IMG/VR virus record: IMGVR_UViG_3300028805_003982
Strand: one strand, 5' to 3'
Length of the DNA stretch: 64,000 nt
From: a virus
Taxonomy: Duplodnaviria > Caudoviricetes
Shown here in pieces: positions 4,153 through 19,784 of this stretch. The notes under the pieces were generated by a model. The model did not search any database, was not told the origin of the DNA, and worked only from the letters and a program-made list of their open reading frames with translations. Each line of letters begins with the position of its first letter. Position 1 is the stretch's first letter. Position numbers and translations under genes: made by a program.

Positions 4153-4189
4153 AAAGAAGAAACGCCGGTCTAGAGGGTGTTTCTTTTTT
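4153..4189 (+). terminator. Leader terminator/attenuator upstream of the large surface protein
   Basis: AAAGAAGAAACGCC...GGTGTTTCTTTTTT hairpin with U-tract. Confidence 0.7.
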
Positions 4190-4233
4190 AATACCCGCAC
4201 AGCGGAAAATAAATCTAAAGGAGAAAAATCATT

Positions 4234-7200
4234 ATGAGTAAGAACTCAAAGAAAAAGTTTGTCAGCACGATGCTTGCTGCAAGCATGATCTTCTCCTCAA
4301 TACCTTTTACGGCATTGGCAGATGATGCTATCTCCGGCGGCGATAATGACGATGTTGTTATCGAGTCGCAGGTAGCAGAAGAGCCTGCCGTAACAGAACA
4401 GACTTTTGAGCCCGAGCCGATCCAGGCCGAGGAACCCGTTGAAGACAAGAACGTCGATAAGGTTCCCGAGGATGACGCGGAGCCTTCAGAAGTTGTTTCT
4501 GATGTTGAGGAAGAACCGCCCATCGAGGCAGAAGAAGGTAATGATGAGGAAACACCAGCTGCAACGGACACAGAAGTTGTAACAGAACCTACAGAGACTG
4601 CGGATAATCCGGCGGCTTCTGAGCCTGATACAACTAAGACTGCCGAAACTGAAGCAGCTTCTGAAAATGTTGTATTTGATCATTACTTTACAACTATTGA
4701 TACTTCACTTGTAAAGACAAAGGATCTTTTGGTTCAGACATCAGACCCTTCTGTATTCACATACAATACAAATGTTGTATCTAACTATGATGACGTATAT
4801 GTTATTTCTTGCGATTCTCTTAAAGAAGCAAGGTACGTGTTCTCTTATTATGTGGATAAGGTAAATAATATAACAGATATGTCGAATGTGTTTACTATCG
4901 CTTCAGAGTCGGATGATACTGCAGATCTGTCAGATCTTAATAATGGTACAGATGCAATTGCTGCTCTGAACGATATCAACGCAACAAATCACAGCGGTTA
5001 TATTGCTCTGATCGATACGGGTGCGAATGCAAACATCAATTATTCCGTAGTTGGTGATGATGTTTCTGATTCTAACGGTCATGGTACGGCAATGCTGAAC
5101 TATATCCGTGAAGAAAACCCTGCTGCAAGAGTGATCTCTATCAAGGTCTTTGATGGTAATAAGACAAATGCAGCAAACGTTTATGCAGGAATCAAACTTG
5201 CTATTGAATCTAAGGTTTCTATTATCAATCTGTCATTCGTAGGACCCGATGTAGAAAATAATGCCATCGTTAAGTCTGCTATTCAGGAAGCTTTGGATAA
5301 CAACATTAAAGTTGTTGGTGCGGCAGGTAATAACAATGGTAATGCCAAGAAGTATATTCCGGGTTGTGTTGAAGACGCTATCGTCGTAGGCGCAGTTAAC
5401 TCTGACGGCACAAAGTTCAGTTCTTCCAACTATAATGCTGATCTTTATGTTGTAGCTACTTCTTCGTCTGAAGCGGCAGCCAGATATACCGGTATGCTTT
5501 CAGGCAACTCTACAAACAACGACCGAGTATTTTCTACTCTGACATCTGGAGAAGTTCAGGATGCAGTAGCAGATACCGAGGGTGGCCGTGTTTTCTATGC
5601 TACATCTGACGATGATATTGATTGGAATAATCTTAAAGCCGGTGATGTAGTTTATCTGCCAGATTGTTATTATGTGATTAATGCGGTCAATGCGGACGGC
5701 ACTGTTGTTTTTATGCCTTATGCTCTTGACTATGACGAAGATAGTTTTGAATTGACCGCTCGTCACTATGGCGATCAGACAAAAACATCTTCCGCAAAGA
5801 CCATTACTCCCGGACAATCAGGTACTGATACAGGCACGGGGCATATCGGTTATAATGCGCATGGCTATGATAGTGTTACAAATCTTAAGTCGAACTCTTC
5901 CAGTAAGTACAAGCTGACAGACTGGTTCTCCAGTCTCGGTGCGGATTGTGAGTCCTTGTGGTTTGGGGATAGCGATTCTTCAAGACATGCTAAGTGCTTA
6001 TCTAATACAGATGTTAAGTATTCTGCTTCTTGGAAAACATACACAAACTCTAACGGTCTGCCTGAAATTAAGTTTACTGTCAGATTTACTGCCTCCAATG
6101 ATAATTTTAGTGCTAGAAATTGGGTTCACCATAAAATAACCTGGAAAGTTACCAAAGAACACTTAGGCAATAATGTTTATCAGTGGGATGCCTATATTTA
6201 TGATAACGGTACTCAAAAGTGGCACAAAGATTGGAGCGCGTACGACTCCACAAGTATCAATGATACGATCTGTTCGAGTATAAAAAGTTCCATCGCTTCA
6301 TACAAGGCTATCGGGGGTGATTGGACAGGTTATAAGTCTGTAAGCAGTGTATCAGTTCCGTCGGCAAAGACTATCGGTGATGCCACTACTACCAAGCCTG
6401 CTACCGGTACTTACCAGACTTATTATAAGTGCACCAATCCTATGCAGATCTATCGTGGTGTTGGGATTGTTAATATGCCTGGTCTTATGCTGTTCATGCA
6501 GAAGACGGCACCTTCATCAGATTATTCTGTATTAACAGACGATAGCACCTGCTATAGCTTTAAGGGTACTCAGTACAAGTTGTATACGGGATATGATTCA
6601 CATGAGGACAAGGCTACAGGAACCGTTCTTAAGACATTTACTCTTGATGCCCAGGGTCTCTCAGATGATCATTATACAGTTACGGAGTTCCCTTCCACCT
6701 TCTATATACAGGAGACTACAGCAGGTAAGGGGTTCTCGATCGATACACATGTCTATAAGGTGTATGTGCCCTCTGTTACCGGCTCTGTAGTTGTTACCGA
6801 TATGACTACTGAAGATCCTGATGACGTATGGCGTTATCCTTCTGACGGTACTTTAGTTCGTATGAAGTTTAAGGACTATCCGGTTACCGACCCTCTGGCT
6901 TTTGAGCTTAGAAAGATCAATGAGCAGGGGCAGATAACTGATGCTACGCTTTCAGATACAGAGTTTACTCTGGAATATTATGCACAGAACATCGCCTGGG
7001 ATAATAAGATTTCTGATTACGAGCCTACTGTCGTATATCATTTTACCCGCGCAGCTGGTGATAATTCACAGCTTAAACTTTCTGACTTTATGAATCTGCC
7101 GCCTGTCGGTGGTACAAACGGTGAGTATCTGCACGATCTTTATGAGGCAGATGTTTTGGATAATGAATATCAGTGGCCTCTCGGTACATATCTGATTTAC

Positions 7201-10200
7201 GAGAGCACACCGCCTGCCGGCTTTGCTTGTAATGAACAGATCCTTCGTATTAAGTTCTATCAGGTAAATAATGGCGATGACGTAGCTCGTATCATTCATA
7301 AGGTTGAGGACCGCGACGGAAATCAGATCGAAGGCGACGGTTATTTCTGGGATTACACGCTCGACCGTTCAGGTGACGAGTATAACCAGATCTTCATGAC
7401 TCTTGATGATAACGTTCTTACAGGACACTATCAGCTTACAAAGTCGATGAAGTCTGATGACGTTGTTAAGGATCTGGACGGCGTATTTACTTTTGAACTC
7501 GTTCAGGGTGATAAGCAGATCGCAACAGGTGTTTCTCAGGCAGACGGCAAGGTTCTTTGGACTTATACTCTTGAGGGCTTGAAGTCTGAGATCAACAGAG
7601 AAGCTCTTACGGGCACAACCGCGAACGTGCTTGAGCTCGCTGCTTATTGGGCAGACGGCTCTGCTATCGAGTATGAAGTAAGAGAAACTGTTCCTGCATA
7701 TCCTTATGGCGGAACTTCTAACATCTCTTATACTCAGAAAGCTCCTGAGGGCTGGACGTTAAGTGGTGACGGTACTTATTACTATCATACGTTTACCGTT
7801 ACAGAGGCTCAGACAGTGGATGCTCCTTACGAGGACACCATTGTTAATGACCTTGAGTCCTACTCTTTGAGCTTTGTAAAGAACATTCCCGCAGGCGACA
7901 GCTTTGACCGTACAAAGGTTGCTTTCCAGCTTATCTATACAGACACAAACACAGTTATCGCTAACGGTGTTGCAGATGCTACAGGTAACATTACTTGGAC
8001 AGCAGCTCACAATACAGGTTATGTTTGTGATACAAGTGTCGCAAGTCTGATCAAGGGTCTGCCCGGCGGTAACTACAAGGTCACAGAGACTTGGGATAAG
8101 ACTTATATCGCAACTCTTGACGATGATCAGGCAGAGCTTATCGAAGATAACTTGTCTGACGGTTGGGTAAAGGCTAACAGAAATGACGTTTACGAGTTTG
8201 GTTATACCTTTACTCTTGACGCGGACAAACAGATCTCCGGCGGCGAGGTCATCAATGACACTGTTGCTCAGTGGTTCAACATGACTAAGACGACTACGGT
8301 AGCAGGAGATGCTTCTACTGTTACGGTCGAACTTATCAATGCTGACGGCAATATCCTTGCAAGAGGTACTGCTGAAACAACAGCACAGCCCGGAACATTT
8401 AATGTTACTTGGGATTATGCAGGTAAGCACAAGGAAGTTAACGGTCTTGATACCATCGAGCTTCCTGCAGGCGATTATACTATAAGAGAATATCAGCCCG
8501 TTACTTACTACGATAACGGAAAGAACAATGTTCCTTATACCTATATGAAGCCTGAACTTAAGATCGGTGACGATACTCTTGGCGTTTTCGTTTCAGAGAA
8601 AGACGGTAAGGTAACATTTGAGTCTTCCGCATTCACTGTCGAGAACAATGAGACGGTAGTCCTCAACTCTACCGCTTCTAACACGCGTATCGAGGGTGAC
8701 CTTAGCATTATCAAGGTTGAAAGATCAGATGATACATCAACTGATAAGACTTTCAATCTGGAAATCTACTACAGAGGAAATGACTCTGAGGCGCATGACG
8801 TTGGCATGTTCCTTGAGAATTATCTCCTTGATACAATCACGATCACTACAAAGAACGGCGAAGGCACGGCAACACTTGGTAAGATCCCTGAGGGCTGGTA
8901 CGAAGTCCGTGAGATCGACAACGATGGTTGGACCGTAACTTGGGGCGGCGATGCCGCAACAAGTATCATTGGCGGTACTCCGACTAAGTTGTTCCATGTA
9001 GATTCAAAGGACAAGACAAATGCCGCACCCGTCGTAAATGATGGCGTAGAAGAGAACGGTACTCCTATCGACGGACTGCTTATCTATAACGATATCGCTC
9101 CTGAGATCGGTACAACCTTTACTGACAGTGCTACAAAGGATCATATCGCAGCTACAGACGTTGAAGCTAAACTGATCGATACTGTTGCTTATAAGAGAGT
9201 TCTTCCGGGCAGCTATAAGCTTTACGGTGTTCTTATGAACAAGGCAACAGGTGAACCTTTGGTAGATGCAGAAGGTGTTGAAGTTCGCGCTTCTACAGCA
9301 TTTACTATCCCTACGGTTGGCAATCTTGACAGATTTGGCAATCCCATGCCTGTAAGCGATACGGTTGACGTTGAGTTTATCCTTGATACAACTATGGTCA
9401 ATGGTCTCAAGGCAGTTGCCTTTGAGGAACTTTACGCAGTAGATGTTCACGGTGATGTAACAGGTCAGCCTGTTGCTGAACATGAAGACATTGATGATGT
9501 TGATCAGACAATGGATATCGGTGATGGTCAGACAACGCTTCTTGACGATGCAACCGGTACTCATACAACAGCTCTGGCAGAGAAGGTTTCTCTTACAGAC
9601 TATGTTGAGTTCAATCATCTGCTTCCTGGCAAGTCTTACACCATGACAGGTACTCTGATGGATAAGGCAACAGGAGAGCCTCTGAAGGATGCCGAGGGCA
9701 ACGAGATCACTGCTTCACAGCAGTTCTTGGCTGATCCTGATGATCCTAACCTTGAGAACGTCATCGTTGAGGACGGTTCATTCTCAGGTATGGTTAAGGT
9801 TACTTTCGAGATCGATACAACGATCCTTGTTAAGAAGACAACACACATCGTTGCCTTTGAGACTTGTACCGACGATGAGACCGGCGTAGCCGTAATCATC
9901 CACGCAGATCTTGAAGATGATGATCAGACAGTACGCGTTCCTACGGCGATCACAAAGGCTGAGTATCCTGACGGAGCAAAGACTGCCGTAAGAGTTCCTG
10001 ATCTCGTTCTTATCGACACCGTAACTTATACGGGTCTTGAACCCGGTCAGAGATACCGTATCGTTGCAACACTTATGGTTAAGGAAACGGGCGAGCCGCT
10101 TATGAACAACGGCGAGATCGTAAAGGTAACCGATGAGTTCGTTGCACCTGCATCTGACGGTGTTGAACCCGTTGAGATCACGTTTGACGCTACAGGCCTT

Positions 10201-10485
10201 AAGGTTACTGATCATGTCGTAGTCTTTGAGGAAGTTTATAACCTCTTTACAGGTAAGCAGGTAGATCCTGATACCGGAGATGAGACTGAGGTTGAGGAAC
10301 TTGTTCTTGTTGCAGAGCACAAGGATATCAACGATCAGGACCAGACAGTGGGCTTCATGGCTAAGACAGGCGACAGTCTGCACACACTTGCTTATATCAT
10401 CGGAACAGTAGTTTCAGTAGCAGGTCTTGCAGGACTGACAGTCTTTGTCATCAAGAGAAAGAAGAAGGGCACTGAAGAAGCCTGA
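4234..10485 (+). CDS. Sortase-anchored surface protein: subtilase (S8)-like domain, Ig-like stalk and three T-Q ester (VaFE) repeats
   Basis: Signal peptide and acidic linker; IALIDTG, HGTAM, AAGNN and SSSEAAARYTG; VAFE/VVFE with HEDIDDVDQT, HADLEDDDQT and HKDINDQDQT; C-terminal MAKTG, TM helix and KRKKK. Confidence 0.85.
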   Translation: MSKNSKKKFVSTMLAASMIFSSIPFTALADDAISGGDNDDVVIESQVAEEPAVTEQTFEPEPIQAEEPVEDKNVDKVPEDDAEPSEVVSDVEEEPPIEAEEGNDEETPAATDTEVVTEPTETADNPAASEPDTTKTAETEAASENVVFDHYFTTIDTSLVKTKDLLVQTSDPSVFTYNTNVVSNYDDVYVISCDSLKEARYVFSYYVDKVNNITDMSNVFTIASESDDTADLSDLNNGTDAIAALNDINATNHSGYIALIDTGANANINYSVVGDDVSDSNGHGTAMLNYIREENPAARVISIKVFDGNKTNAANVYAGIKLAIESKVSIINLSFVGPDVENNAIVKSAIQEALDNNIKVVGAAGNNNGNAKKYIPGCVEDAIVVGAVNSDGTKFSSSNYNADLYVVATSSSEAAARYTGMLSGNSTNNDRVFSTLTSGEVQDAVADTEGGRVFYATSDDDIDWNNLKAGDVVYLPDCYYVINAVNADGTVVFMPYALDYDEDSFELTARHYGDQTKTSSAKTITPGQSGTDTGTGHIGYNAHGYDSVTNLKSNSSSKYKLTDWFSSLGADCESLWFGDSDSSRHAKCLSNTDVKYSASWKTYTNSNGLPEIKFTVRFTASNDNFSARNWVHHKITWKVTKEHLGNNVYQWDAYIYDNGTQKWHKDWSAYDSTSINDTICSSIKSSIASYKAIGGDWTGYKSVSSVSVPSAKTIGDATTTKPATGTYQTYYKCTNPMQIYRGVGIVNMPGLMLFMQKTAPSSDYSVLTDDSTCYSFKGTQYKLYTGYDSHEDKATGTVLKTFTLDAQGLSDDHYTVTEFPSTFYIQETTAGKGFSIDTHVYKVYVPSVTGSVVVTDMTTEDPDDVWRYPSDGTLVRMKFKDYPVTDPLAFELRKINEQGQITDATLSDTEFTLEYYAQNIAWDNKISDYEPTVVYHFTRAAGDNSQLKLSDFMNLPPVGGTNGEYLHDLYEADVLDNEYQWPLGTYLIYESTPPAGFACNEQILRIKFYQVNNGDDVARIIHKVEDRDGNQIEGDGYFWDYTLDRSGDEYNQIFMTLDDNVLTGHYQLTKSMKSDDVVKDLDGVFTFELVQGDKQIATGVSQADGKVLWTYTLEGLKSEINREALTGTTANVLELAAYWADGSAIEYEVRETVPAYPYGGTSNISYTQKAPEGWTLSGDGTYYYHTFTVTEAQTVDAPYEDTIVNDLESYSLSFVKNIPAGDSFDRTKVAFQLIYTDTNTVIANGVADATGNITWTAAHNTGYVCDTSVASLIKGLPGGNYKVTETWDKTYIATLDDDQAELIEDNLSDGWVKANRNDVYEFGYTFTLDADKQISGGEVINDTVAQWFNMTKTTTVAGDASTVTVELINADGNILARGTAETTAQPGTFNVTWDYAGKHKEVNGLDTIELPAGDYTIREYQPVTYYDNGKNNVPYTYMKPELKIGDDTLGVFVSEKDGKVTFESSAFTVENNETVVLNSTASNTRIEGDLSIIKVERSDDTSTDKTFNLEIYYRGNDSEAHDVGMFLENYLLDTITITTKNGEGTATLGKIPEGWYEVREIDNDGWTVTWGGDAATSIIGGTPTKLFHVDSKDKTNAAPVVNDGVEENGTPIDGLLIYNDIAPEIGTTFTDSATKDHIAATDVEAKLIDTVAYKRVLPGSYKLYGVLMNKATGEPLVDAEGVEVRASTAFTIPTVGNLDRFGNPMPVSDTVDVEFILDTTMVNGLKAVAFEELYAVDVHGDVTGQPVAEHEDIDDVDQTMDIGDGQTTLLDDATGTHTTALAEKVSLTDYVEFNHLLPGKSYTMTGTLMDKATGEPLKDAEGNEITASQQFLADPDDPNLENVIVEDGSFSGMVKVTFEIDTTILVKKTTHIVAFETCTDDETGVAVIIHADLEDDDQTVRVPTAITKAEYPDGAKTAVRVPDLVLIDTVTYTGLEPGQRYRIVATLMVKETGEPLMNNGEIVKVTDEFVAPASDGVEPVEITFDATGLKVTDHVVVFEEVYNLFTGKQVDPDTGDETEVEELVLVAEHKDINDQDQTVGFMAKTGDSLHTLAYIIGTVVSVAGLAGLTVFVIKRKKKGTEEA

Positions 10486-10518
10486 TTAGTTCTCTTTTTA
10501 ACTCGATAATCAGTTGAG

Positions 10519-10577
10519 TTTGCTCTTTAAAGCGTCTGCGGGCTGTAAAAGGCTCGCAGGCGTCATTAGAGAGTAAA
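10519..10577 (+). other. Long intergenic stem-loop without U-tract
   Basis: TTTGCTCTTTAA-AGCGTCTGCGGGC...GCTCGCAGGCGT-CA-TTAGAGAGTAAA, with G-U-compatible pairing. Confidence 0.65.
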
Positions 10578-10602
10578 ACGGCTAAATCATCAGAAAGGAA
10601 GC

Positions 10603-11523
10603 ATGATGCGTAAAAAAGAATCAAAGATAAAAAGGTATATCAGTAATGTACTTATTGTATTGGCCGGGATATGTCTTGCTGTTGGCGCATACTTTAGCAT
10701 AAGGGGTTTGATCACGGACATCAAAGACTATAACGAAGTGGAAGCTGACAGAGAGGAACTTACTGACACATTCCATAAGACTGTTCCGCAGCCAAACGCT
10801 CAGGGCGGAGACCTGGATCTTCCGTACGATGAGTCAGAGGATCTTAAGCTTAAGTACGATACCATGAAGGCCATAAATCCTGATTATGCCTGCTGGCTCA
10901 AGATAAACGGGACCGGGCAGGAATACCCGGTTTGCGTTAACCTGGAAGGCTCTTCATATTATTACTTAAATCACAGTTTTAAAAGGAAGCCCTTGGGCGC
11001 CGGTTGTCTCTTTATCGATCCGGGATCTTCGGTCGATTGCGATAATCTTATAATATACGGACATCACATGAGAAACGGTACGATGTTCGGCAGCTTGGGT
11101 AAGTTCTTGAAAGAGGAATGGACCCGTGACGGCAATAACAGCCTTATCGAAGTATTTACGGAGACAGAGCACCGTTATTATGAAGTTGTTTGTGTATTAA
11201 CGGCAAGTGTTTATAAAATGCCTTTCAGCATTACCGGGTATACAGATCTTTCTGATTATAATGATAATGTTGCGTTTGGCAACCTGCTCCGTAAGCATTC
11301 ACAGATCAACATGGATTGGAAAATAGGTGACAACGGTTTTGAGCCTAATCCCAATCTGTTTACTCCGGGTGTGTATAAAGACCGGTTCTTAACACTTATT
11401 ACTTGTGAATATACACATCGTAACGGCAGGGAAGTAGTCATAGCAAGGGAGCTTTACAGACCGATGTGGACGGCGGAAGAAATGATGCAGTCTGCCGCGC
11501 AATCCGAGGCGATTTCTGAATAA
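10603..11523 (+). CDS. srtB: Class B sortase
   Basis: N-terminal TM helix, INPDY..WL.I.GT..YPV, IYGHHMRNGTMFG, TLITC and GREVV. Confidence 0.92.
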   Translation: MMRKKESKIKRYISNVLIVLAGICLAVGAYFSIRGLITDIKDYNEVEADREELTDTFHKTVPQPNAQGGDLDLPYDESEDLKLKYDTMKAINPDYACWLKINGTGQEYPVCVNLEGSSYYYLNHSFKRKPLGAGCLFIDPGSSVDCDNLIIYGHHMRNGTMFGSLGKFLKEEWTRDGNNSLIEVFTETEHRYYEVVCVLTASVYKMPFSITGYTDLSDYNDNVAFGNLLRKHSQINMDWKIGDNGFEPNPNLFTPGVYKDRFLTLITCEYTHRNGREVVIARELYRPMWTAEEMMQSAAQSEAISE

Positions 11524-11577
11524 AGGAGCCGTGTTTTCCTAATAAAAGATAACAAGGACGAAAAATGACGTTATAAT
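11522..11577 (+). promoter_or_regulatory. Conserved 29-bp box promoter, copy B (drives the large ncRNA)
   Basis: AAAGGAGCCGTGTTTTCCTAATAAAAGAT, then 19 nt, then GT-TATAAT. Confidence 0.85.
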
Positions 11578-11602
11578 AGTTGTACTCGATTGAACTTTGA
11601 AA

Positions 11603-12218
11603 ACCTAATAATCATCAGGATAGCAGTGCATACACGTTATCTCGGTGTAGAGGGGCTTATCACCCTGCCGAGACGCTGCCGGATCAGAAGAGAAGCTTTT
11701 AAGGATACTTTCCAGTTTCTCAAGCGTGCTGAACGTGAGCTTAGCACCTCGTCATAGCAATGGCGTTGGCAGGCGGCGGTATGTACTGTGTGATGTTGGC
11801 GTGAACTGCTGGTGGCCGATGTAATAGACGCCAGCTCGAAAGGCTGGAAGAATCCGAATGCCCTAAGGCCGGTAACCTTAGGCACCTTTCGGAAATACCA
11901 AACAAGTCGGTTTGCCGTGAGACTGCGGAAACGCAGAGTATAACATCAGCAGGCTTCGTAAGTAGCCCAAGGCAGCAAGAACTTCAGATAATGATATTAC
12001 ATTTGCGAAATGTGATAGGAATTTTTCTGAATGATATGGGTGAAAGCTGGGGGTATCAATCCCTTACAGGCTCGGGCGATATCAGCCTGCGCAAGAAGGA
12101 CGGTGTAGCTGACCGTTTCTCAGACTTGCGTACCTGTCGGCGCGATAAACCGTAGCACAGATAGTATGCTGAACAAAAGGCAAGCGTGTGTGTACTGTTA
12201 TCCTGATGGTTGTCGGGT
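11603..12218 (+). ncRNA. Large structured ncRNA, most likely ROOL (rumen-originating ornate large) RNA
   Basis: No credible ORF. 11603-11638 pairs with 12183-12218 as a ~36-bp closing stem whose deviations are nearly all G-U. Many internal hairpins (CTCGG..CCGAG, GTGCT..AGCAC, CCAGC..GCTGG, CCTAAGG..CCTTAGG, CTGCG-GAAA-CGCAG, CAGGCT..AGCCTG, CGCAAG..CTTGCG). The size and the segments GTAGCCCAA and ATATGGGTGAAAG..GGTATCAATCC resemble ROOL as I recall it. Confidence 0.8.
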
Positions 12219-12226
12219 GGTATAAT
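12218..12226 (+). promoter_or_regulatory. Extended -10 element TGGTATAAT at the 3' end of the ROOL closing stem
   Basis: Perfect TGnTATAAT consensus. Confidence 0.45.
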
Positions 12227-12324
12227 ATACTGAAAACGAAAGACGGCCAAGGCTCTGAAAAACCAAAATAATTATGAATAGCCTTAAAGCGAATTGCGTG
12301 CACAAGGTCGTTTTAGTTGATATT

Positions 12325-12366
12325 ACAGACTCCGAAAGATCTTCTTTTGGGGTCTGTTTTTTATTT
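12325..12366 (+). terminator. Intrinsic terminator after the large ncRNA
   Basis: ACAGACTCCGAAAGA-TCT-TCTTTTGGGGTCTGT followed by TTTTTATTT. Confidence 0.85.
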
Positions 12367-12403
12367 GGGGTTAATTACGGCCACGGAAAGGAAGGGGATA
12401 GGA

Positions 12404-13072
12404 GTGAGCAGCGATTTTGCGAGAATAAGAGCAGAGGTGCTTCAAGACGTTGAGCTGAATCCGGATTATTATGAACTGTTGTCGGATCGGGCAGATATGA
12501 TAGAGTTCATAGATAAGACAGATGGGATATTTGATTATCATTATGTTATTACAGATACGGATGTAATAACCCCGGATTGGCTGAAAAGCAAGACTTTGGT
12601 TACTCCGGATGCCCGGGAGTTATTTAGAACAGATCTGTCGAACCTCTTTGAACTGGTGGATAAATACATCCCTAAAGAAGCATATCAGACATTGCAGGAA
12701 TTGATATTTATCACTAATTCGGATGCGGATTATGAATATCTCTATAATGATAGCGAACTTTATATCAGGAAATTACTGGAAGAACATGCCTTGCCGGATG
12801 AGGAACAATTGGGTTTGTCTTGGACCGCAGAAGGGGTAGTTATCATTAATCTGGGGAAGATCGAGACTTCAGTCAAAGAGATGACAGAGGAAGGGGCTTT
12901 CGGTTCTACTCTGGAACGGGTTGTGTTGGATACCATTGCACACGAGTTCAGACATCTTCAGCAAACTAATCCGTATGTATCACAAGAGATCAAAGACACG
13001 TTCCTCGATGACATAGAGATAGATGCAGAGGTGTTTGCAAGAAATATCAACTATGGGGAGTTGGGATTATAG
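12404..13072 (+). CDS. HExxH zincin-like metallopeptidase-domain protein
   Basis: DTIAHEFRHLQQ...IEIDAEVFA. Start reassigned to GTG 12404 because the ORF-track start lies inside the terminator. Confidence 0.65.
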   Translation: MSSDFARIRAEVLQDVELNPDYYELLSDRADMIEFIDKTDGIFDYHYVITDTDVITPDWLKSKTLVTPDARELFRTDLSNLFELVDKYIPKEAYQTLQELIFITNSDADYEYLYNDSELYIRKLLEEHALPDEEQLGLSWTAEGVVIINLGKIETSVKEMTEEGAFGSTLERVVLDTIAHEFRHLQQTNPYVSQEIKDTFLDDIEIDAEVFARNINYGELGL

Positions 13073-13101
13073 AAACATCAAGAGAAAGCTGAGGTGTAAA
13101 T

Positions 13102-13344
13102 ATGAATCAGTTTGGACTTTATTTTATTGATACCAAGGAGTTTGTCAGCTGTGGCAGTTATGCACAGGCGTTTAAGATGTATCTGGACGTTCTATATAAG
13201 GCTATCGATGAAAGTTTCCTGTTGCCGGATAACGTGGGAATAGCGTATTTCGTTCCTGAGCGTAACAGAATAGAACAAGTTGATATGCTTGGACGTGTGA
13301 CAAGATCCGTTCTCATATCCAAGGAAGAGATCACGTTCAGTTGA
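13102..13344 (+). CDS. Hypothetical protein
   Basis: GAGGTG RBS; 80-aa ORF. Confidence 0.65.
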   Translation: MNQFGLYFIDTKEFVSCGSYAQAFKMYLDVLYKAIDESFLLPDNVGIAYFVPERNRIEQVDMLGRVTRSVLISKEEITFS

Positions 13345-13434
13345 AGGCTTTTGGCAATATGCTACAAAAACTGATTAAATGTCTTGGGATTTTTGTGCTA
13401 TAATACCTACGAGAAATACTATAGGTATAACAAG

Positions 13435-13662
13435 ATGAGTCCTGAAGATTATTTAGAGAAGTTTAGAATGCTTGCCAATCAAAAGGCTTTTATATGTCCG
13501 TCCACAGATCCGCTGTTGGCGGAGTCTTTGTGTGAAGAATGGAATGAAACCGTTATGCAGGCAACAAAGGCGGGGCTGGCTCATAGCGAGATACGCAAGA
13601 TATGGGAAGAAACGTCCTTTATAAAAGGTTCTCTTTTAGGGATTGACCGGAAATCCATGTAA
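13435..13662 (+). CDS. Small protein, paralogue of 25842-26051
   Basis: Shares WNET-x3-A-x-K-x-GL-x7-IWE...SFIK with 25842-26051; start at ATG 13435. Confidence 0.7.
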   Translation: MSPEDYLEKFRMLANQKAFICPSTDPLLAESLCEEWNETVMQATKAGLAHSEIRKIWEETSFIKGSLLGIDRKSM

Positions 13663-13718
13663 AAAGGTTCCGTATTTTCCTAGAGATAGACACATTATTA
13701 ATTTTCTGCTGTTATATT
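13663..13718 (+). promoter_or_regulatory. Conserved 29-bp box promoter, copy C
   Basis: AAAGGTTCCGTATTTTCCTAGAGATAGAC, then 19 nt, then GT-TATATT. Confidence 0.85.
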
Positions 13719-13724
13719 ATAAAG

Positions 13725-13823
13725 TGTTACTATGCTACATGATTCCCAACGAAGCAGATGTAGATGTAGTGGAATACTCCTTTTTAATTGATGGTCGGTG
13801 CCGGAAACGGCATCGATCTTTTT
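13725..13823 (+). ncRNA. Putative ~100-nt sRNA or attenuated leader
   Basis: Lies between promoter copy C and a strong terminator (GGTCGGTGCCG-GAAA-CGGCATCGATC-TTTTT, 13793-13823). Contains a 5' stem GCTACAT/ATGTAGT and an unpaired CTCCTTTTT. Confidence 0.5.
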
Positions 13824-13841
13824 ATGTTGAAGGGACAACGT

Positions 13842-14489
13842 ATGGATTGGTATGAGTTTGACAGTTTGGAAAGACAAAAAGAGTATTTTCCAGAGTTGCA
13901 GGCTGCTGTTGATTCCGAATACGGGCAGCACCTTTGCTATCCTTTAAGGGAAAATATCTATAATGCCTTTAAATTAACACCTGTTAGCAGTATCCGATGT
14001 GTGATACTTGGACAAGACCCGTATCACGGGCCGGGGCAGGCGACCGGATTGGCTTTTTCGGTTCCGCATAGTTTCCCGTTGCCGCCGTCTCTTCGTAACA
14101 TCTATAAAGAGATAGAAGCGGATACAGGTAAAAAGACGGTGAATCCTGACGGGTGCCTTGAACCCTGGGCCTCTCAGGGTGTATTGCTCTTGAATTCATC
14201 TTTGTCGGTCAGGGCACACGAACCCGGGTCTCATGCAGATCTGGGGTGGGGGACCTATACCGATAATTTCATTAAGATGCTGGGCGCCTTGGACCAAGAT
14301 ATCGTCTATATGTTATGGGGTAAGTTCGCAAGGAGTAAAAAGCAGCTTATAACAAACAAAAGGCAGTTGATCCTGGAAGCGCCTCACCCGTCTCTGTTTT
14401 CGGCAAACCGGGGATTTTTCGGATGCGGGCATTTCAGTAAATGTAATGAATATCTTGAATCAAAAGGTCAGAACAAAATAATCTGGTAA
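13842..14489 (+). CDS. ung: Uracil-DNA glycosylase (family 1)
   Basis: VILGQDPYHGPGQATGLAFS, PPSLRNIYKE, GVLLLNSSLSV, HPSLFSANRGFFG; start at ATG 13842. Confidence 0.95.
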   Translation: MDWYEFDSLERQKEYFPELQAAVDSEYGQHLCYPLRENIYNAFKLTPVSSIRCVILGQDPYHGPGQATGLAFSVPHSFPLPPSLRNIYKEIEADTGKKTVNPDGCLEPWASQGVLLLNSSLSVRAHEPGSHADLGWGTYTDNFIKMLGALDQDIVYMLWGKFARSKKQLITNKRQLILEAPHPSLFSANRGFFGCGHFSKCNEYLESKGQNKIIW

Positions 14490-14501
14490 AGGAGATTTTT
14501 A

Positions 14502-14693
14502 ATGTATCAGTACGAGGTCGCTAAACAAAAGGGAGGCAAGAACTATTTTTGTTATGAGGTCGGAGAGCAGCTGCCGATTAAAGGAACTTTCGGCGATAAG
14601 AAAAAAGTAATGAAGATTGCAGCCTCACTGAACGGCGTTTCGTACGCGGATTTTGTGAAAAACAGAAAAAACGGTTTTGATATAGAAAAATAA
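14502..14693 (+). CDS. Small hypothetical protein
   Basis: AAGGAG RBS; 63 aa. Confidence 0.65.
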   Translation: MYQYEVAKQKGGKNYFCYEVGEQLPIKGTFGDKKKVMKIAASLNGVSYADFVKNRKNGFDIEK

Positions 14694-14701
14694 CGGGTGT
14701 A

Positions 14702-14727
14702 ATACCTTTGGAGTAACCAAAAGGTAT
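14702..14727. promoter_or_regulatory. Inverted repeat (candidate operator) upstream of pilus cluster 1
   Basis: ATACCTTTGG-AGTAA-CCAAAAGGTAT, a near-perfect palindrome without a U-tract. Confidence 0.4.
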
Positions 14728-14944
14728 ACCATTTGTAATCTAATTGTGATATAAATAGTGTGTCGGGGAAGTATAAGTTAGACGAGATGTTTTGATGTAG
14801 TTTTTGGTCGTAATTGTAATTAGTGTACGCTTTGTTGTCAGATTTTGTTTTCCTTGATAATGATAAGTTACTTATAGGTTTTCCCCGGCACGTTTATTTA
14901 TATAACCGCTTATGCGGGTATTAAATCTTAGTGGAGGTTAGATT

Positions 14945-16225
14945 ATGCACAAATTCAAGAACTTTCTCGGCATACTGTGTGCTGTTGCATTGATGGCAGG
15001 CTCAGTATTCAGCGTATCTGCAGCCGAGATAGGAGAGGGCACCGCTGAGACCAATGATACGGAGATCCTGATCCCCAAGAGCATCAATGTCACAAATCCG
15101 GAGGACATTGAGGTTTGGACACCTGCGATCACGTATTCATATGAGATCAGAGGTGTTGAGAGCAGATTGGGTTCTACGGTAACTGATACGGAAGGCCGCA
15201 GGGTATCCGTAAGGCCTGGACCTGATGGCGGTGCAGTGTTGCCCACGGGCGTTGTTGAGTTTGACTCACAGAAGGTCATGGCAAACACTGCTGCCAACGA
15301 AGTTGAGGATAATCTTGTGGTTAATGTCGATCTCAGCAAGTTTGAACAGCCAGGCATTTATCGTTATGAGATCAAGGACGTAACAGACTTGGGTCTTCTC
15401 CGGGCAGCAGGTATCGAAAGAGCCGAAGATTATGATCTTATCAGATATCTTGATGTTTATATCATCAGGGATCAGGATACGGGAAATCTTAAGGTTTCCG
15501 GCTACGCTTTGACTAACGGATATGTACTCGATCCCGAGCATACGGGGTACCCGGTAATATCCATTGAAGCATGGGAGACCGACAAATCTTCAGGTTATGT
15601 ACCACGGTCAGAGATCTTTGACGACTATACGTATGATATCGACGGCACCGCACAGATGACCGATACGTATGATACGTATAACGTTAAGATTACTAAGCAG
15701 GTTACAGGCGATATGGGTGACACGTCTCACGAGTTCCCCTTCGTAGTTGATGTAACCGGACAGGATGAGATCAAGTACAGCCACGGTAAGTGCGCAGCAG
15801 ATCAGGCAGATCCTGACATTACAGAAGATACTAATACAGATTCCATCAGCACAACGATGAAGAACACCGAGTATTACGTACTTCAGGGATTGTCCCCTCT
15901 GGCCACGGTTGCTGTTGAAGAGACCAACGACACTTATGACGGTTATACAGTAACGGTAACTGACAAGGACGGAACTGAAGTAGTCCCCGCAACAGACGCT
16001 GTGGCCTTTAACGGCACGGTTAAAGTTGATGCCTTCCAGGTATCAGACTACGAAACTCCGGATGTTGAGGCTTCTGCAAATGCCAAAGACGAGCTTACAT
16101 ACGACAATCATCTGGACAACGTATCTCCTACAGGCGTTATCCTTGCGTCAATGCCTTTCGTAGGCTTGGCAGGTGTTGGCGGCACGATGCTCGTTTTGGG
16201 CAAGAGAAAGAAAAAGGAAGACTAA
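14945..16225 (+). CDS. Backbone pilin (Spy0128/FCT-like), module 1
   Basis: Signal peptide; F-x2-PGIYRY; ITKQVTGDMGD...FPF, VEETND and YDN (K/E/N isopeptide-like set); VSPTGV, TM helix and KRKKK. Confidence 0.8.
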   Translation: MHKFKNFLGILCAVALMAGSVFSVSAAEIGEGTAETNDTEILIPKSINVTNPEDIEVWTPAITYSYEIRGVESRLGSTVTDTEGRRVSVRPGPDGGAVLPTGVVEFDSQKVMANTAANEVEDNLVVNVDLSKFEQPGIYRYEIKDVTDLGLLRAAGIERAEDYDLIRYLDVYIIRDQDTGNLKVSGYALTNGYVLDPEHTGYPVISIEAWETDKSSGYVPRSEIFDDYTYDIDGTAQMTDTYDTYNVKITKQVTGDMGDTSHEFPFVVDVTGQDEIKYSHGKCAADQADPDITEDTNTDSISTTMKNTEYYVLQGLSPLATVAVEETNDTYDGYTVTVTDKDGTEVVPATDAVAFNGTVKVDAFQVSDYETPDVEASANAKDELTYDNHLDNVSPTGVILASMPFVGLAGVGGTMLVLGKRKKKED

Positions 16226-16228
16226 GTT

Positions 16229-16798
16229 ATGAGCGATGAACTTACGGGAGCTACAACTGATATGACAGAGGTTAACGCCCCCGGTAAGTGGAAGACCTTC
16301 TGGTCGTCCTGGGCAGATGAAATAAAGCGGTTAGTCCGCAATGTTTTTGTCGTCCTTGTCGGGCTCTGGATTATGTTCGGCTTTATAGTAGGAATCGGCA
16401 GGGTCGGTTCAGTCGAGATGTCCCCGACCGTGGGCTTGGGCGATATCGTAATGTATTCCAGACTCGACAAGGCACCCCGGACAAATGAGGTAATCGTTTT
16501 TGATATGGAAGCCTCCGAATGTATTGGCCGCGTAATCGCCGGACCCGGTGATAAGGTAGACATTTCCGAGCAAGGTCAGCTGTTCGTGAACGGCCATCTT
16601 GTTCAAGAGAGCAGGATCACAGATCCCACATATCCGTATCCTGAATATGTTTCGTATCCTTTAACTGTAGCTCCTGACAACTATTTTGTTTTGGGGGATA
16701 ACAGGAAGTCCGGTGTGGACAGCAGATATTACGGAACGGTTCCGAAAGACCAGATCAAGGGAACACTTATAACACTTATCAGGCACAACAATTTTTAA
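16229..16798 (+). CDS. Signal peptidase I-like protein, catalytically degenerate (SipA/LepA-like)
   Basis: S26 boxes present (EMSPT, GRVIAGPGD, YFVLGDNR..GVDSRYYG), but the catalytic Ser is Glu and the Lys is Gly. Confidence 0.8.
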   Translation: MSDELTGATTDMTEVNAPGKWKTFWSSWADEIKRLVRNVFVVLVGLWIMFGFIVGIGRVGSVEMSPTVGLGDIVMYSRLDKAPRTNEVIVFDMEASECIGRVIAGPGDKVDISEQGQLFVNGHLVQESRITDPTYPYPEYVSYPLTVAPDNYFVLGDNRKSGVDSRYYGTVPKDQIKGTLITLIRHNNF

Positions 16799-16819
16799 GG
16801 TTAGAGAAAGGGAACAAAC

Positions 16820-17953
16820 ATGTCCTTAGCAGCATTTTTCAAATTGAGTAATCTTGCGACCAACGCGCTCGCTACAGTAACAGCGGTATCCGTTATCGGA
16901 TTCTCCGGTTATATGGTGTACGACAACTACATGGCGCAGAATAAGGCTTATGGATATGATCTGTTATCTTATAAACCGTCTGTCGAAGAAAATACCATCT
17001 CAATGCAGGAGTTGTATGATCTGAACCCGGATATTTGCGGCTGGATCACGATCGATGATACACATATAGATTATCCGATAGTTCATTCTGACGATGATCT
17101 GTACTATGTAAACAGAGACGCGACAGGTCAGCCTTCACTTACGGGTTCCATCTATCTGCAGGCTAAAAATGAATCGGATTTTACGGATTCTTACAATCTT
17201 TTGTATGGCCATCATGTTGACGGCGGCGCAATGTTCGGGGATCTTTCCCTGTTCCGTGACGCCGACTTCTTTAAGAAACATACTGAAGGTACTCTGATCA
17301 CTTTGAATAAAGCGTATTCCATAGATATCATTGCTTGCGTCAGCACTAATGCTTACTGTAAGTGCGTGTATGACAGGACTAAGCTTGACAAGGCTTCATA
17401 CGAAGAGCTTATTGCAGACCCTGAAGTCTTTGTAATGAATCAGAATGCCCGCAGTTTGGATTCGGCAGTCAAGTATCTTGCTCTTTCAACCTGTTACGGT
17501 GTTTCGACTGACGGAAGAACCGTTGTCATCTGTAAGATCACTGAGATCCCTGTTCCGGTCGATCCGCCCAAGCCTGATCCTAAGCCTCCGAAGGTCGTTA
17601 AGACCGGTGAGACATACCAGGTAGGCTGGGGCATTATCAACGTAGCAGCAGTCTTTATGACTTTGCTTACTGCGGTTCCTTATCTTAAGTTCTTTAAGGA
17701 CGATAAGAAGAAGATATACGCAAGGCTCGGTTTTGCGGCAAGCATCGTAGCTACTATATCCGCGGCACTCGTATTCTTTAGGGTGGAGGAACTGTCCGGA
17801 GCAATGATGATAACAGACAGATTTACTTTCATTTTCCTTTTGTTCTTCGGAGTTGCATTACTCGCAGAAGAACTGATAACCAAGGTTTACACAAAAAAGA
17901 ACAAAAATAAAGGCATTTCCATTAAGGAGGAAAAAAGATCATGGGAAGTTTAA
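16820..17953 (+). CDS. srtB: Class B sortase with Pro-rich linker, VVKTG and C-terminal 3-TM extension
   Basis: YGHHVDGGAMFG, LSTC and GRTVV, then PVDPPKPDPKPPKVVKTG and three hydrophobic segments. Confidence 0.88.
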   Translation: MSLAAFFKLSNLATNALATVTAVSVIGFSGYMVYDNYMAQNKAYGYDLLSYKPSVEENTISMQELYDLNPDICGWITIDDTHIDYPIVHSDDDLYYVNRDATGQPSLTGSIYLQAKNESDFTDSYNLLYGHHVDGGAMFGDLSLFRDADFFKKHTEGTLITLNKAYSIDIIACVSTNAYCKCVYDRTKLDKASYEELIADPEVFVMNQNARSLDSAVKYLALSTCYGVSTDGRTVVICKITEIPVPVDPPKPDPKPPKVVKTGETYQVGWGIINVAAVFMTLLTAVPYLKFFKDDKKKIYARLGFAASIVATISAALVFFRVEELSGAMMITDRFTFIFLLFFGVALLAEELITKVYTKKNKNKGISIKEEKRSWEV

Positions 17954-19230
17954 AACTTAAGAGAGTGGCAACCCCTATTCTTGCAGCGGCCATTATGGCC
18001 AGTATGGCTTCGGTTTCATTTGCCGCAGACATTGGTGCGAACGGTATCGTTGAAACGTCGGATACGGCTATCAACATTCCTAAGTCGGTGACACTGTATA
18101 ACGACGGATTTAACAAGTCCTATCTCCCGGCTATCACATTCAATTTCACCATCGCTCCTGCGACATTGACCGAAGAGGTACACATTACTGACTCTAACGG
18201 TCATACCGTTGCAGTGCAGTCCGGTCCTGCAAATTCCATTTCCAATCCTACTGCAACCGCAGTATTTGAGGAACAGGAAGTCGTTGATACAGGTGCTACT
18301 CTTGACGAGACAGTAAGGAAGAACATGACTTGGAATGTTGATCTTACCAAGTTTACAAAGCCCGGTGTTTACCGTTATACGATCACTGACGTAACACCTA
18401 TCTCTACTTTGTATGCTGCAGGCCTTGAGAGACCTTCGACATACGATACGACAAGAGAACTTGATGTTTATATCAAGAGGGATGCTACTACAGGTAATCT
18501 CGTAGTTGGCGGATATACTCTCCACGATGACATCACCGGTGATATCACTCCCGCAACCGAGAAGGACCCCGGCTTCGTGCCTGAGAGCTTCAACCCCGGT
18601 AACATTTCTAACGGATATGATACTTATACCACATATAACTATCAGGTTCAGAAGAACATTACCGGTGAAATGGCTGATCTGAGTCACAAGTTCCCGTTCG
18701 CAATATCTTTGAACGACGGCGGTTCCGTTGCAGGTCTTGACTATTACGGAGCAGCAGGTAACGCAACTCCTGCATACAGTAATGCAGCAACGATTAACAC
18801 AACCCTTGGAAACAGTGATGTTTACCACGTTTACGCTCTTAATCCCAAGGCTTCTGTAAGTGTTGTCGAGACTAATGATACAAATGATTCATACGATCTT
18901 TATGTAACTACTGTTAATGCTTCCGGCAGTTCAACAGATGCTCAGGCTGAAGCGCTTGCCGCAGGTGCTGCATCAACAGCCAGAACAGGTAACGTATCAA
19001 CATACGCTACAGCCAATTCAGCGTCCAACGTATCAGGCGAAGCTCAGGCCGATCTGCAGTCCAACGGTTTCAGAAATGACCTTCCCGGCATCATCACAAC
19101 TGGCGTTGTACTGAAGTCTCTTCCTTTCGTAGCTCTTGCAGGTATCGGCGGTCTTATGTTTGCACTTTCCAGAAAGAGCAAGAAGAACAAGGTAGCAGAA
19201 GATATTCAGGGCGATTCTTCTGAGATGTAA
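17941..19230 (+). CDS. Backbone pilin, module 2
   Basis: Paralogue of 14945 and 42276: FTKPGVYRY, VQKNITG, VVETND, FRN; IITTGV, TM helix and basic tail. Confidence 0.8.
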   Translation: MGSLKLKRVATPILAAAIMASMASVSFAADIGANGIVETSDTAINIPKSVTLYNDGFNKSYLPAITFNFTIAPATLTEEVHITDSNGHTVAVQSGPANSISNPTATAVFEEQEVVDTGATLDETVRKNMTWNVDLTKFTKPGVYRYTITDVTPISTLYAAGLERPSTYDTTRELDVYIKRDATTGNLVVGGYTLHDDITGDITPATEKDPGFVPESFNPGNISNGYDTYTTYNYQVQKNITGEMADLSHKFPFAISLNDGGSVAGLDYYGAAGNATPAYSNAATINTTLGNSDVYHVYALNPKASVSVVETNDTNDSYDLYVTTVNASGSSTDAQAEALAAGAASTARTGNVSTYATANSASNVSGEAQADLQSNGFRNDLPGIITTGVVLKSLPFVALAGIGGLMFALSRKSKKNKVAEDIQGDSSEM

Positions 19231-19271
19231 TTCAAAAAATAAATTAAAAAGGGGTTTAACAAGGTAACTTT

Positions 19272-19784
19272 ATGAAAGAAAAAATAATGGCGTTTTTCAA
19301 AAAATATGATGCACTTCCGCGTATATTCCTGAAACTGGCCATTTTCGCAACGCTTCTTTATATCGCATTCGGGTTCATAATAGGTGTTTCTATTATGAAC
19401 TCGGACGATATGAAGCCTAATGTCAAATTAAGGGACATAGTTGTTTATTCAAGGATAGATAAAGATTACCTGAACAGAACGGCCGTCGTGTACGAGGTTA
19501 ACAATAACACGTTGGTCGGAAGAATCGTAGCTTTACCCGGCAGCCATGTGATCATTGATGAAAAAGGCAATGTTAACGTAGACGGTATTACGATCCAGGA
19601 AAGCGAAGTTTATATGAGTAAAAAGCAGGAAGGGTTCTCAACGGACGTAACATTAGGTCCTGATGAGTATTTCATTCTTGCAGACAACAGGCAGGTCGGT
19701 ATCGACAGCAGATACGTAGGGCCTGTCAGTAGCAGCGCTATCAAGGGAGAAACCTTAATAATAATAAGAAGGTATGGTATATGA
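19272..19784 (+). CDS. SipA-like degenerate signal peptidase
   Basis: DDMKPN (Ser to Asp), VGRIVALPG (Lys to Gly), YFILADNR..IDSRYVG. Confidence 0.8.
   Translation: MKEKIMAFFKKYDALPRIFLKLAIFATLLYIAFGFIIGVSIMNSDDMKPNVKLRDIVVYSRIDKDYLNRTAVVYEVNNNTLVGRIVALPGSHVIIDEKGNVNVDGITIQESEVYMSKKQEGFSTDVTLGPDEYFILADNRQVGIDSRYVGPVSSSAIKGETLIIIRRYGI

Follow-up and report, generated by a model that had tools for sequence, protein, structure and literature searches.

The 64-kb window analysed here (the whole stretch of 64,000 nucleotides, which belongs to a contig of 234,910 bp) encodes at 11617–12201, on the plus strand, a genuine ROOL RNA. The RNA class is already known, and the novelty lies in the member and in its setting on a conjugative element. 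The initial annotation had proposed a ROOL-like giant ncRNA at this place and a comparison with the Rfam models of ROOL, GOLLD and OLE, and this comparison bears the proposal out. In the Infernal/Rfam search the core matched RF03087 with 241.4 bits (gathering score 99.1, E = 1.1e-53), and the alignment covers model positions 1–574 of 574, so that it is not truncated. ROOL was the sole Rfam family matched in the window; the GOLLD, OLE and intron models gave no match at the gathering score in the 64 kb, nor at E <= 5 in 11480–12420. The core measures 585 nt and the unit from promoter to terminator about 780 nt.

We folded this copy together with 11 other ROOLs. The RNAalifold consensus of the 12 sequences has 117 pairs, of which 95 show compensatory changes, and the covarying set includes a closing helix of 19 bp. 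The window ROOL forms 107 of the consensus pairs, a number comparable to that of the other members, and carries the conserved blocks AAUAGACGC, GUAUAACA, AGUAGCC, UUCUGAAUG, GGUGAAAG and UCAGACUU, while its variable part (around 11975–12025) aligns with the unconserved internal linker of the family. The folding energy of 11584–12366 is -281 kcal/mol (z = -5.8 against shuffles). With a GC content of 50% the copy is richer than most ROOLs; it scores 241 bits against 250–370 for most of them, and the closest ROOLs are only 59–62% identical. A blastn search of the RNA region against plasmids and phages gave no match, as did two other ROOLs searched against plasmids, blastn being too insensitive for the ROOL family. 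One further locus (L062) matched the search pattern, yet gave no ROOL match at the gathering score.

The ROOL copy is transcribed in the ruminant gut, where the core alone assembles and the flanks do not. Cover by metatranscriptome contigs from four independent studies is confined to 11627–12192 (contigs at 11627–12181, 11674–12184, 11639–12153 and 11788–12192, with 0–4 mismatches); these are assembled contigs, which give no strand, true ends or abundance. In one run the RNA contig reached a word depth of 295 and 4.5 kb of flanks yielded scraps only, and such near-bare flanks beside a covered core argue against DNA carry-over. Leader and 3' module had no cover in the RNA contigs, which is not the same as absence. 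A hairpin-dense stretch on a conjugative element could also have its function at the DNA level, whether as oriT, as replication origin or as single-strand initiation site, or it could be a degenerate coding sequence or intron; the RNA match would then be incidental. We consider the chance of this to be very slight, given the full-length covariance-model match, the compensatory changes on the RNA strand, the RNA contigs of four studies and the distance of 47 kb from the relaxase gene; the open reading frames inside the RNA stretch reach 55–82 aa at the longest, and intron models found no match. The initial annotation had named a missing transcript together with missing covariation, and a protein-coding or intron explanation, as grounds for giving up its call; a transcript exists, and the fold is supported by covariation.

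Features of the ROOL unit and of its surroundings in the window
Feature	Position	Strand	Basis or remark
Box copy before the leader of the giant adhesin	3911–3938	+	Two terminator-like hairpins before the ATG at 4234
Giant TQ-ester adhesin, 2083 aa	4234–10485		Upstream of ROOL
Class B sortase, upstream neighbour	10603–11523	+	PF04203, TIGR03064
Element-specific 28-bp promoter box (AAAGGAGCCGTGTTTTCCTAATAAAAGA)	11522–11549	+	Overlaps the sortase stop codon; fixed spacing to the -10
-10 hexamer TATAAT, preceded by GT	11572–11577	+	Promoter scan, 10/12 match; aligns with the other three box promoters
boxA-like leader motif TTGAACTTTGAAA	11590–11602	+	11/13 positions of the B. subtilis rrn boxA consensus
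5' strand of the stalk, extending the closing helix past the Rfam model	11603–11616	+	MFE fold; duplex contiguous with P1
ROOL RNA core (585 nt)	11617–12201	+	RF03087 match; 107/117 consensus pairs canonical; RNA-contig cover
3' strand of the extended stalk	12202–12218	+	Fold and leader-trailer duplex
Lineage-specific structured 3' module	12219–12324	+	Starts with the extended -10-like TGGTATAAT
Intrinsic terminator: 15-bp stem, 3-nt loop, T run	12325–12366 (hairpin and T run 12325–12357)	+	
222-aa protein of no known family, HEFRH motif	12404–13072	+	Starts 38 nt past the ROOL terminator
Box copy before the ung leader	13663–13690	+	Terminator-like hairpin ~13790–13825, then ATG at 13842 (gene call in L059)
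Pilin, signal-peptidase and sortase cassettes	from 14945		Downstream of ROOL
DUF3991-Toprim primase	54578–55858		
Box copy before the leader of the relaxosome/T4SS operon	55896–55923	+	Terminator-like hairpin ~56013–56060
MobA/VirD2 relaxase	58955–59938		PF03432

The conjugative setting claimed initially is borne out by the gene content. Relaxase and primase lie in the window, and precomputed Pfam matches place a TraG/VirD4-type coupling protein (T4SS-DNA_transf/TrwB/TraG-D_C), PrgI and a VirB4-like ATPase (DUF87/AAA_10/P-loop_TraG) directly downstream of it, so that relaxase, coupling protein and VirB4-type ATPase, the genes by which a conjugative element is recognized, occur together on one contig. 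The element is best read as a conjugative megaplasmid or ICE of about 235 kb from uncultured Bacillota of the sheep and goat gut. The window has no phage structural genes, and the ROOL gene lies, as first described, between the sortase-adhesin pair and the pilus loci. When the sortase was used as a probe, its relatives were all at most 35% identical (L001–L050) and none was syntenic; the protein had no exact record match. The 222-aa protein has no relative in IMG/VR and no homologue at other ROOL loci.

ROOL is among the few natural RNAs known to make a closed protein-free cage, and we know of no member of the family with a known function; most copies lie in phage tRNA arrays, which are little informative on regulation. 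The family was described by Weinberg et al. 2017 (RF03087, PMC5737381). The octameric nanocage of the env-120 ROOL was solved by cryo-EM (PMC12286853), and hexameric or octameric cages are described for env-120, E. faecalis and L. salivarius (PMC12286853, PMC12990946). The window copy shares with the family, env-120 included, the full-length model match, the size of about 580 nt, the conserved blocks, the covarying helices and the variable linker. It departs from the family norm in that neighbouring tRNA and phage genes are lacking and that the unit has a box promoter of its own, with a boxA-like leader, a long stalk, a 3' module and a dedicated terminator. GOLLD (RF01998/RF02032) and OLE (RF01071) are likewise large ornate bacterial RNAs, but the window matches neither; of the two, GOLLD is a cage-forming RNA too and is found with tRNAs on mobile elements (PMC12286853).

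The absence of neighbouring tRNAs holds for the whole 64-kb window, where both ARAGORN and Rfam found no tRNA gene. Among the other, non-redundant ROOL loci, 13 of 22 have tRNAs within 5 kb. Tandem copies, positions beside the SRP RNA and, on pMP118, a place among metabolic genes are found in addition to tRNA arrays. Absence of a nearby tRNA is not unique to the window copy: further tRNA-free ROOL loci exist. The flanks of L072 and L074, the closest relatives of the window copy, show no phage or conjugation hallmark in Pfam. In the family of genome G002 (which holds L027 and is labelled an uncultured Lachnospiraceae MAG) a ROOL occurs in one of 61 genomes sampled, which indicates that it is sporadic there and nothing more. 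The ROOLs of phage and prophage tRNA arrays (L053, L054 and L056 from IMG/VR; L064, L066 and L069 from metagenomes) belong to the same RNA family, and homologues of NADAR, GIY-YIG and Ung recur as accessory neighbours at these loci and in the window. Their tRNAs are 0–60 nt away, which implies co-transcription and processing by RNase P/Z, whereas the window copy has a leader-trailer stalk and a dedicated terminator instead.

The nearest precedent for the replicon is the ROOL of the L. salivarius megaplasmid (Cousin et al. 2017, PMC5643018), which is plasmid-borne, stable and as abundant as 16S rRNA; since ROOL is already published on these megaplasmids, the replicon type is not a first. Its promoter lies 225–450 nt upstream of the mature 5' end, which indicates that the RNA is processed (PMC5643018). 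The copy on pMP118 (L060 8264–8806, 130 bits) resembles that of the window in lying on a plasmid-type replicon without tRNA neighbours, but the two are 37% identical, and the pMP118 copy lies among metabolic genes, not adhesin, pilus or transfer genes, with no shared box reported. The 33 matching plasmids of the pMP118 type were typed as mobilizable or non-mobilizable, and none as conjugative.

The unit has, as had been noticed, its own signals for initiation and termination: a strong terminator and, at 11549–11577, the promoter-like site ATAACA-17-TATAAT. Transcription is predicted to start near 11584. Upstream lies a 28-bp box of which the window holds four copies (starting at 3911, 11522, 13663 and 55896) against 0.00 expected in 100 shuffles, all with identical spacing to the -10 hexamer; a search for the box pattern in IMG/VR found no match outside the element. 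The copy at 55896 lies upstream of the relaxase-containing operon, in agreement with the promoter box that the initial annotation had seen as common to ROOL and the transfer operon.

Between each of the four box promoters and its first gene there are non-coding sequence and an intrinsic terminator. This arrangement, together with the start of the 222-aa gene just 38 nt past the ROOL terminator and a boxA-like motif that would suit an antitermination design, could mean that the ROOL fold is part of a long regulatory leader, in which read-through would control the genes at 12404–13344 by cis-acting attenuation or antitermination. However, ROOL genes are found in many kinds of unrelated surroundings, from tRNA arrays and tandem copies to places next to the SRP RNA or among metabolic genes, and this makes a shared cis-regulatory role unlikely. 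The 222-aa gene lacks a homologue at other ROOL loci and the RNA contigs consist of the ROOL core alone, and we regard a leader function of this kind as decidedly improbable.

The leader of the ROOL unit recalls that of rRNA operons, where boxA, which binds NusB-S10 in the nascent leader, goes with a stalk processed by RNase III. The likeness is one of resemblance only: a boxA-like sequence follows the predicted start at a short distance, and a long leader-trailer helix surrounds the mature RNA. The motif was scored against the consensus of B. subtilis rrn boxA, AUGAUCUUUGAAA (PMC13753749). At two mismatches or fewer it occurs in 3 of 24 ROOL leaders against a background of 0.35%, two ROOL lineages besides that of the window carrying similar leader motifs, and in the whole window there are 4 matches against 3.1 expected, so that its weight comes from its position and from a post hoc comparison of leaders. 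The E. coli boxA consensus found no match in any ROOL leader at the same threshold. At the 12 boxA motif loci of five isolate genomes no 16S or 23S start was found nearby, possibly since such leaders tend to be lost from draft assemblies. A first loose boxA-like pattern had been dropped in favour of the published consensus, as it picked up AT-rich stretches of promoters.

The long G-U-rich closing stem of the initial annotation was recovered by folding as a leader-trailer stalk of about 35 pairs (11603–11639 with ~12172–12219). It reaches about 14 nt past P1 of the Rfam model on each side, as a duplex of -14 kcal/mol (z = -3.0), and L072 and L074 show the same kind of stalk pairing with unrelated sequences. 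Processing at the stalk is weakly hinted.

Downstream of the stalk, the structured 3' module may be either a processed trailer or a separate small RNA. For the segment 12202–12366, which comprises the module, the terminator and the 3' stalk strand, the folding energy is -44.9 kcal/mol (z = -3.0), and none of 200 shuffles folded as well. The module has no homologue in about 100 other loci searched by nhmmer and blastn, and is near-identical in the variant element L059, whose unit is 99% identical (6 differences in 921 nt) and thus of no use for covariation or for showing selection. His_leader, considered as an identity for the module, was rejected as a chance match (27 bits, cut-off 49). An extended -10-like sequence, TGGTATAAT, borders the stalk on its 3' side (12219–12227) and raises the alternative of two RNAs, ROOL and a small RNA of about 130 nt (~12234–12362) that would start from this sequence and share the terminator; the 3' module would then be a regulator in its own right and no discarded trailer. 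The folding result, at 200 of 200 shuffles, and the conservation in L059 are in its favour, but a recognizable -35 is absent, the module has neither a homologue at other ROOL loci nor an Rfam family above threshold, and L059 is too close a relative (those 6 differences) to show selection. We regard a second RNA as unlikely.

The explanation that best joins these data, and in our view a probable one, is that of an expressed ROOL carried as cargo by the conjugative element, made from its own unit, trimmed at the stalk and acting in trans as a cage. A primary transcript of about 780 nt would start near 11584 and pass through the boxA-like leader, possibly aided by Nus factors as for rRNA. Leader and trailer would then pair into the stalk of about 35 bp, and trimming in or near it would release a stable RNA of about 570–585 nt; the stalk may thereby replace the end-making role that the flanking tRNAs (RNase P/Z) have at phage ROOLs. 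If it behaves like its homologues of known cryo-EM structure, the mature RNA would assemble into a protein-free homo-oligomeric cage; both cage formation and function are extrapolated to the window copy from its relatives. The cage would work in trans for the element and be induced together with adhesion, Ung and transfer functions. Its likeliest role would be that of an accessory, related to translation or defence, from which the element profits in donor cells or new recipients, and the ROOL of the window is probably no cis regulator. The absence of nearby tRNAs, the commonest setting of ROOL, speaks against this explanation.

A more specific reading, possible though rather unlikely, places ROOL through the 28-bp box in a regulon for transfer and establishment. 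The same box would switch on ROOL, the giant adhesin, Ung and the relaxase/T4SS operon, and transcription would follow the rRNA style, with a boxA leader and then excision from the stalk of about 35 bp. About 44 kb lie between ROOL and the relaxase operon downstream of it, and other conjugative elements with this co-orientation transfer their DNA in the direction leading away from the tra genes. If an oriT lies at the head of the relaxase operon and transfer proceeds in this direction, the ROOL DNA would enter the recipient early. The cage might then protect translation or counteract defences early on, on behalf of the incoming DNA, with a possible parallel in phages, where ROOL stands beside tRNA arrays. 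Such a reading, if true, would give a first regulatory and functional handle on ROOL.

The gain from this locus is one of context, and it shows that ROOL rides conjugative elements as well as phages. The box common to the adhesin, Ung and relaxase/T4SS operons leads to the testable hypothesis that ROOL is co-induced with DNA transfer, and the self-contained unit, expressed in vivo, provides a defined DNA fragment on which such co-induction can be tested. The recurrence of a boxA-like leader and a stalk suggests, for the family, a route to rRNA-like ROOL levels and to the formation of ends without flanking tRNAs.

When all 64 kb of the window were searched with Rfam 15, a single match emerged, to the ROOL family (RF03087). 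It scored 241.4 bits (E = 1.1e-53; gathering score 99.1) and was untruncated, spanning model positions 1-574 of 574. The initial annotation had called a ROOL-like RNA here and named the ROOL model as the check; as this model matches over its full length, the RNA is a member of the known family and not a new class. A permissive Rfam scan of 11480-12420 (E <= 5) gave only noise, with no match to GOLLD, OLE or intron models. We aligned the window RNA with 11 other ROOLs, and the RNAalifold consensus contained 117 pairs, including a 19-bp closing helix, with at least one compensatory double change in 95 of them. The window RNA forms 107 of these pairs and the other members 102-114. The longest open reading frames in the region encode 55-82 aa, and it is hardly credible that the stretch is instead a coding region or an element acting at the DNA level.

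Features of the window and its matching RNA contigs
Feature	Position	Strand	Remark
NADAR protein	173-616	+	
Zeta-toxin-like protein	958-1575	+	
Box copy	3911	+	heads giant-adhesin leader
TQ-ester adhesin	4234-10485	+	2083 aa
Class B sortase	10603-11523	+	
Box copy	11522	+	heads ROOL unit
Promoter-like site	11549-11577	+	ATAACA-17-TATAAT; sequence scan
ROOL	11617-12201	+	RF03087
RNA contig, run X8	11627-12181		contig word depth 295
RNA contig, run X7	11639-12153		
RNA contig, run X6	11674-12184		
RNA contig, run X10	11788-12192		
Strong intrinsic terminator	12325-12357	+	15-bp stem and T run; sequence scan
HEFRH (HExxH) motif protein	12404-13072	+	222 aa
Box copy	13663	+	heads ung leader
Family-1 Ung	13842-14489	+	273 bits to equivalog
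Paralogous cassettes, DUF7601 pilin and S26 signal peptidase	14945-20890 (two), 42276-44124 (third)	+	
Giant surface proteins	several sites	+	MucBP, LRR, DUF285
DUF3991-Toprim primase	54578-55858	+	
Box copy	55896	+	heads leader of relaxase-containing operon
MobA/VirD2 relaxase	58955-59938	+	

Gut metagenomes of sheep and goats contain the window DNA, and parts of it were found in 11 RNA runs. Four metatranscriptomes from four different studies were compared with positions 10000-14500, and their ROOL contigs matched the window with 0-4 mismatches, while the remainder of the 4.5 kb gave nothing but scraps, which were short, low in depth or matched only in part. This cover, limited to ROOL with otherwise bare flanks, argues against DNA carry-over, and we conclude that the RNA is produced in vivo. 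Each of the four contigs stops short of the Rfam boundaries at both ends, leaving leader, 3' module and terminator uncovered, which hints, weakly since the evidence comes from assembled contigs, that the stable species is a trimmed core. This agrees with the ROOL of Ligilactobacillus salivarius, whose mature RNA is 520 nt long and whose promoter lies 225-450 nt upstream (PMC5643018). A natural C to T variant at 11831, in the conserved AAUAGACGC block, occurs in the X8 contig and in L059, a near-identical variant of the window element.

The unit had been described as closed by a long G-U-rich stem and equipped with its own promoter and terminator, and the stem, a promoter-like site and a terminator were all recovered. 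For segment 11584-12366 the predicted fold has an energy of -281 kcal/mol (z = -5.8), and in it leader positions 11603-11616 pair with trailer positions 12202-12218, prolonging the Rfam closing helix outward into a G-U-rich stalk of about 35 bp. The leader-trailer duplex runs on from P1 (-14 kcal/mol, z = -3.0). The nearest ROOLs, L074/L082 (62% identity) and L072 (59%), have the same type of extension, yet their leader and trailer sequences are unrelated to those of the window; this retained pairing supports the stalk as a trait of the subgroup. On balance, we favour a primary transcript of about 780 nt that would be cut at the stalk to give the stable core. The stalk and the terminator are separated by a structured module of about 105 nt, which starts with TGGTATAAT (folding z = -3.0 for 12202-12366, with the stalk strand and terminator included) and has no homologue among about 100 other loci and no Rfam family. 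The predicted module may be a trailer that is discarded, or it may be a small RNA in its own right; that it yields a second small RNA is unlikely, though compatible with the processing of a ROOL core. We also consider it improbable that ROOL is a cis-regulatory leader for the genes at 12404-13344, the first of which starts 38 nt past the terminator and encodes a protein with no Pfam family and no homologue in other ROOL loci or IMG/VR.

A few bases past the predicted start, TTGAACTTTGAAA (11590-11602) agrees at 11 of 13 positions with AUGAUCUUUGAAA, the NusB-binding boxA consensus of Bacillus subtilis rrn operons (PMC13753749). Across the window, matches of equal stringency are no more frequent than chance predicts (4 found, 3.1 expected), and the weight of this one rests on its position and not on count. 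Such matches (at most 2 mismatches, no more than 60 nt from the RNA) occur in three of 24 non-redundant ROOL leaders, those of the window, L064 and L079, against 0.35% of control windows (binomial p ~8e-5, a post hoc comparison), and the three belong to different ROOL subgroups. The shared form, ATGAAC(T/A)TTGA(A/G)A, lies directly upstream of the RNA (-19 in L064, -11 in L079). Looser YTTGAAAA-type sequences in several other leaders form the 5' strand of an extended closing helix. In five isolate genomes, none of 12 loci with the motif had a 16S or 23S start close by, which may reflect the loss of rRNA leaders from draft assemblies. From the motif, boxA-assisted transcription is a plausible but unproven explanation of high ROOL output, and we only tentatively propose that boxA and Nus factors would aid it.

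The 28-bp box AAAGGNNCCGNNTTTTCCTANNNANAGA ahead of the -10 hexamer was searched with up to 2 mismatches, and all four copies matched without any (0.00 expected in 100 shuffles). The distance from box to -10 hexamer is identical in all four, and none has a conserved -35. The box is present in L059 and was not found in 102 other fetched loci or in IMG/VR. One copy heads the relaxase-containing operon, in agreement with the earlier claim that ROOL and the transfer operon share a promoter box. We infer co-regulation by an element factor, and the chances that ROOL would be co-induced with the adhesin, Ung and transfer operons appear even. Behind the other three box promoters, non-coding leaders with one or two intrinsic-terminator-like hairpins precede the giant adhesin (3911-4233), ung (13663-13841) and the relaxosome operon (55896-56124). 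These predicted hairpins suggest element-wide antitermination or attenuation control, which may resemble the conAn system of pLS20-type plasmids.

All credible window genes lie on the + strand. The relaxase, together with genes for a TraG/VirD4-type coupling protein, a PrgI-like protein and a VirB4-like ATPase just downstream on the same 234,910-bp contig, upholds the annotated conjugative-element setting; the element may be either a plasmid or an ICE. Both cassettes at 14945-20890 continue with a sortase that scores weakly in Pfam, and in the third the next protein (236 aa, 44121-44831) has no Pfam match. It is unusual for each pilus locus to have a signal peptidase of its own. The variant L059 keeps the adhesin-sortase-ROOL-ung order, with 6 differences from the window among the 921 positions of its ROOL unit. 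It carries an extra block (L059 6693-9643, against window ~14500-14940) between ung and the first pilin gene, with an IS1595 transposase, a BrnT/BrnA toxin-antitoxin pair, DUF6037 and an HTH gene, which would mark this gap as a cargo hotspot.

The absence of neighbouring tRNAs, also claimed initially, extends to the whole 64-kb window. Among 22 non-redundant loci from IMG/VR, metagenomes, two GTDB genomes and the L. salivarius megaplasmid pMP118, 13 have tRNAs within 5 kb of ROOL, frequently abutting, including the nearest relatives L072 and L074; settings without tRNAs include pMP118 and L051/L055. Published work already places ROOLs on plasmids, namely the megaplasmids of L. salivarius (PMC5643018, PMC12990946), and we confirmed that of pMP118 (L060 8264-8806, 130 bits). 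The pMP118 ROOL occurs on 33 PLSDB plasmids, all typed mobilizable or non-mobilizable and none conjugative, unlike the window element with its relaxase and T4SS genes. In chromosomes ROOL is sporadic (1 of 61 genomes drawn from the family of G002, which is labelled an uncultured Lachnospiraceae MAG and contains L027). In L061 (185-448; 1501-2067), from a genome drawn from that family, a 358-bit ROOL lies about 1 kb from an SRP RNA gene, and the 3.6 kb fetched there contain no tRNA. Tandem, mutually different ROOL genes on the same strand occur 29 nt apart in L057 (1501-2087 and 2117-2619; Solobacterium MAG, sheep rumen) and 131 nt apart in L085 (1575-2144 and 2276-2808). Homologues of three window genes recur near ROOLs: NADAR proteins (48-53% identity) within a few kb in four IMG/VR loci, L054, L056 and the pair L051 and L055, which carry the same ROOL; GIY-YIG proteins related to that at 28722-29621 adjoining ROOL in L074/L082, L076, L090 and L053; and family-1 Ung (43-51% identity) directly downstream in L079 (2089-2268) and L088 (245-15), a single lineage. 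The window Ung lies 1.6 kb downstream under its own box promoter, and this proximity could be coincidental or could reflect a recurrent pairing.

Judged by its homology to ROOLs of solved structure, the RNA probably assembles as a homo-oligomeric cage. It would plausibly act in trans to benefit the mobile element in a translation- or defence-related role, a statement of direction and not of specifics. Beyond the family call, our analysis adds evidence of expression in vivo, a unit complete in itself, the sharing of its promoter box with transfer genes, a boxA-like leader that recurs among ROOLs and a putative processing-stalk design in place of flanking tRNAs. The window ROOL overturns nothing, and it offers a concrete handle for studying ROOL regulation.
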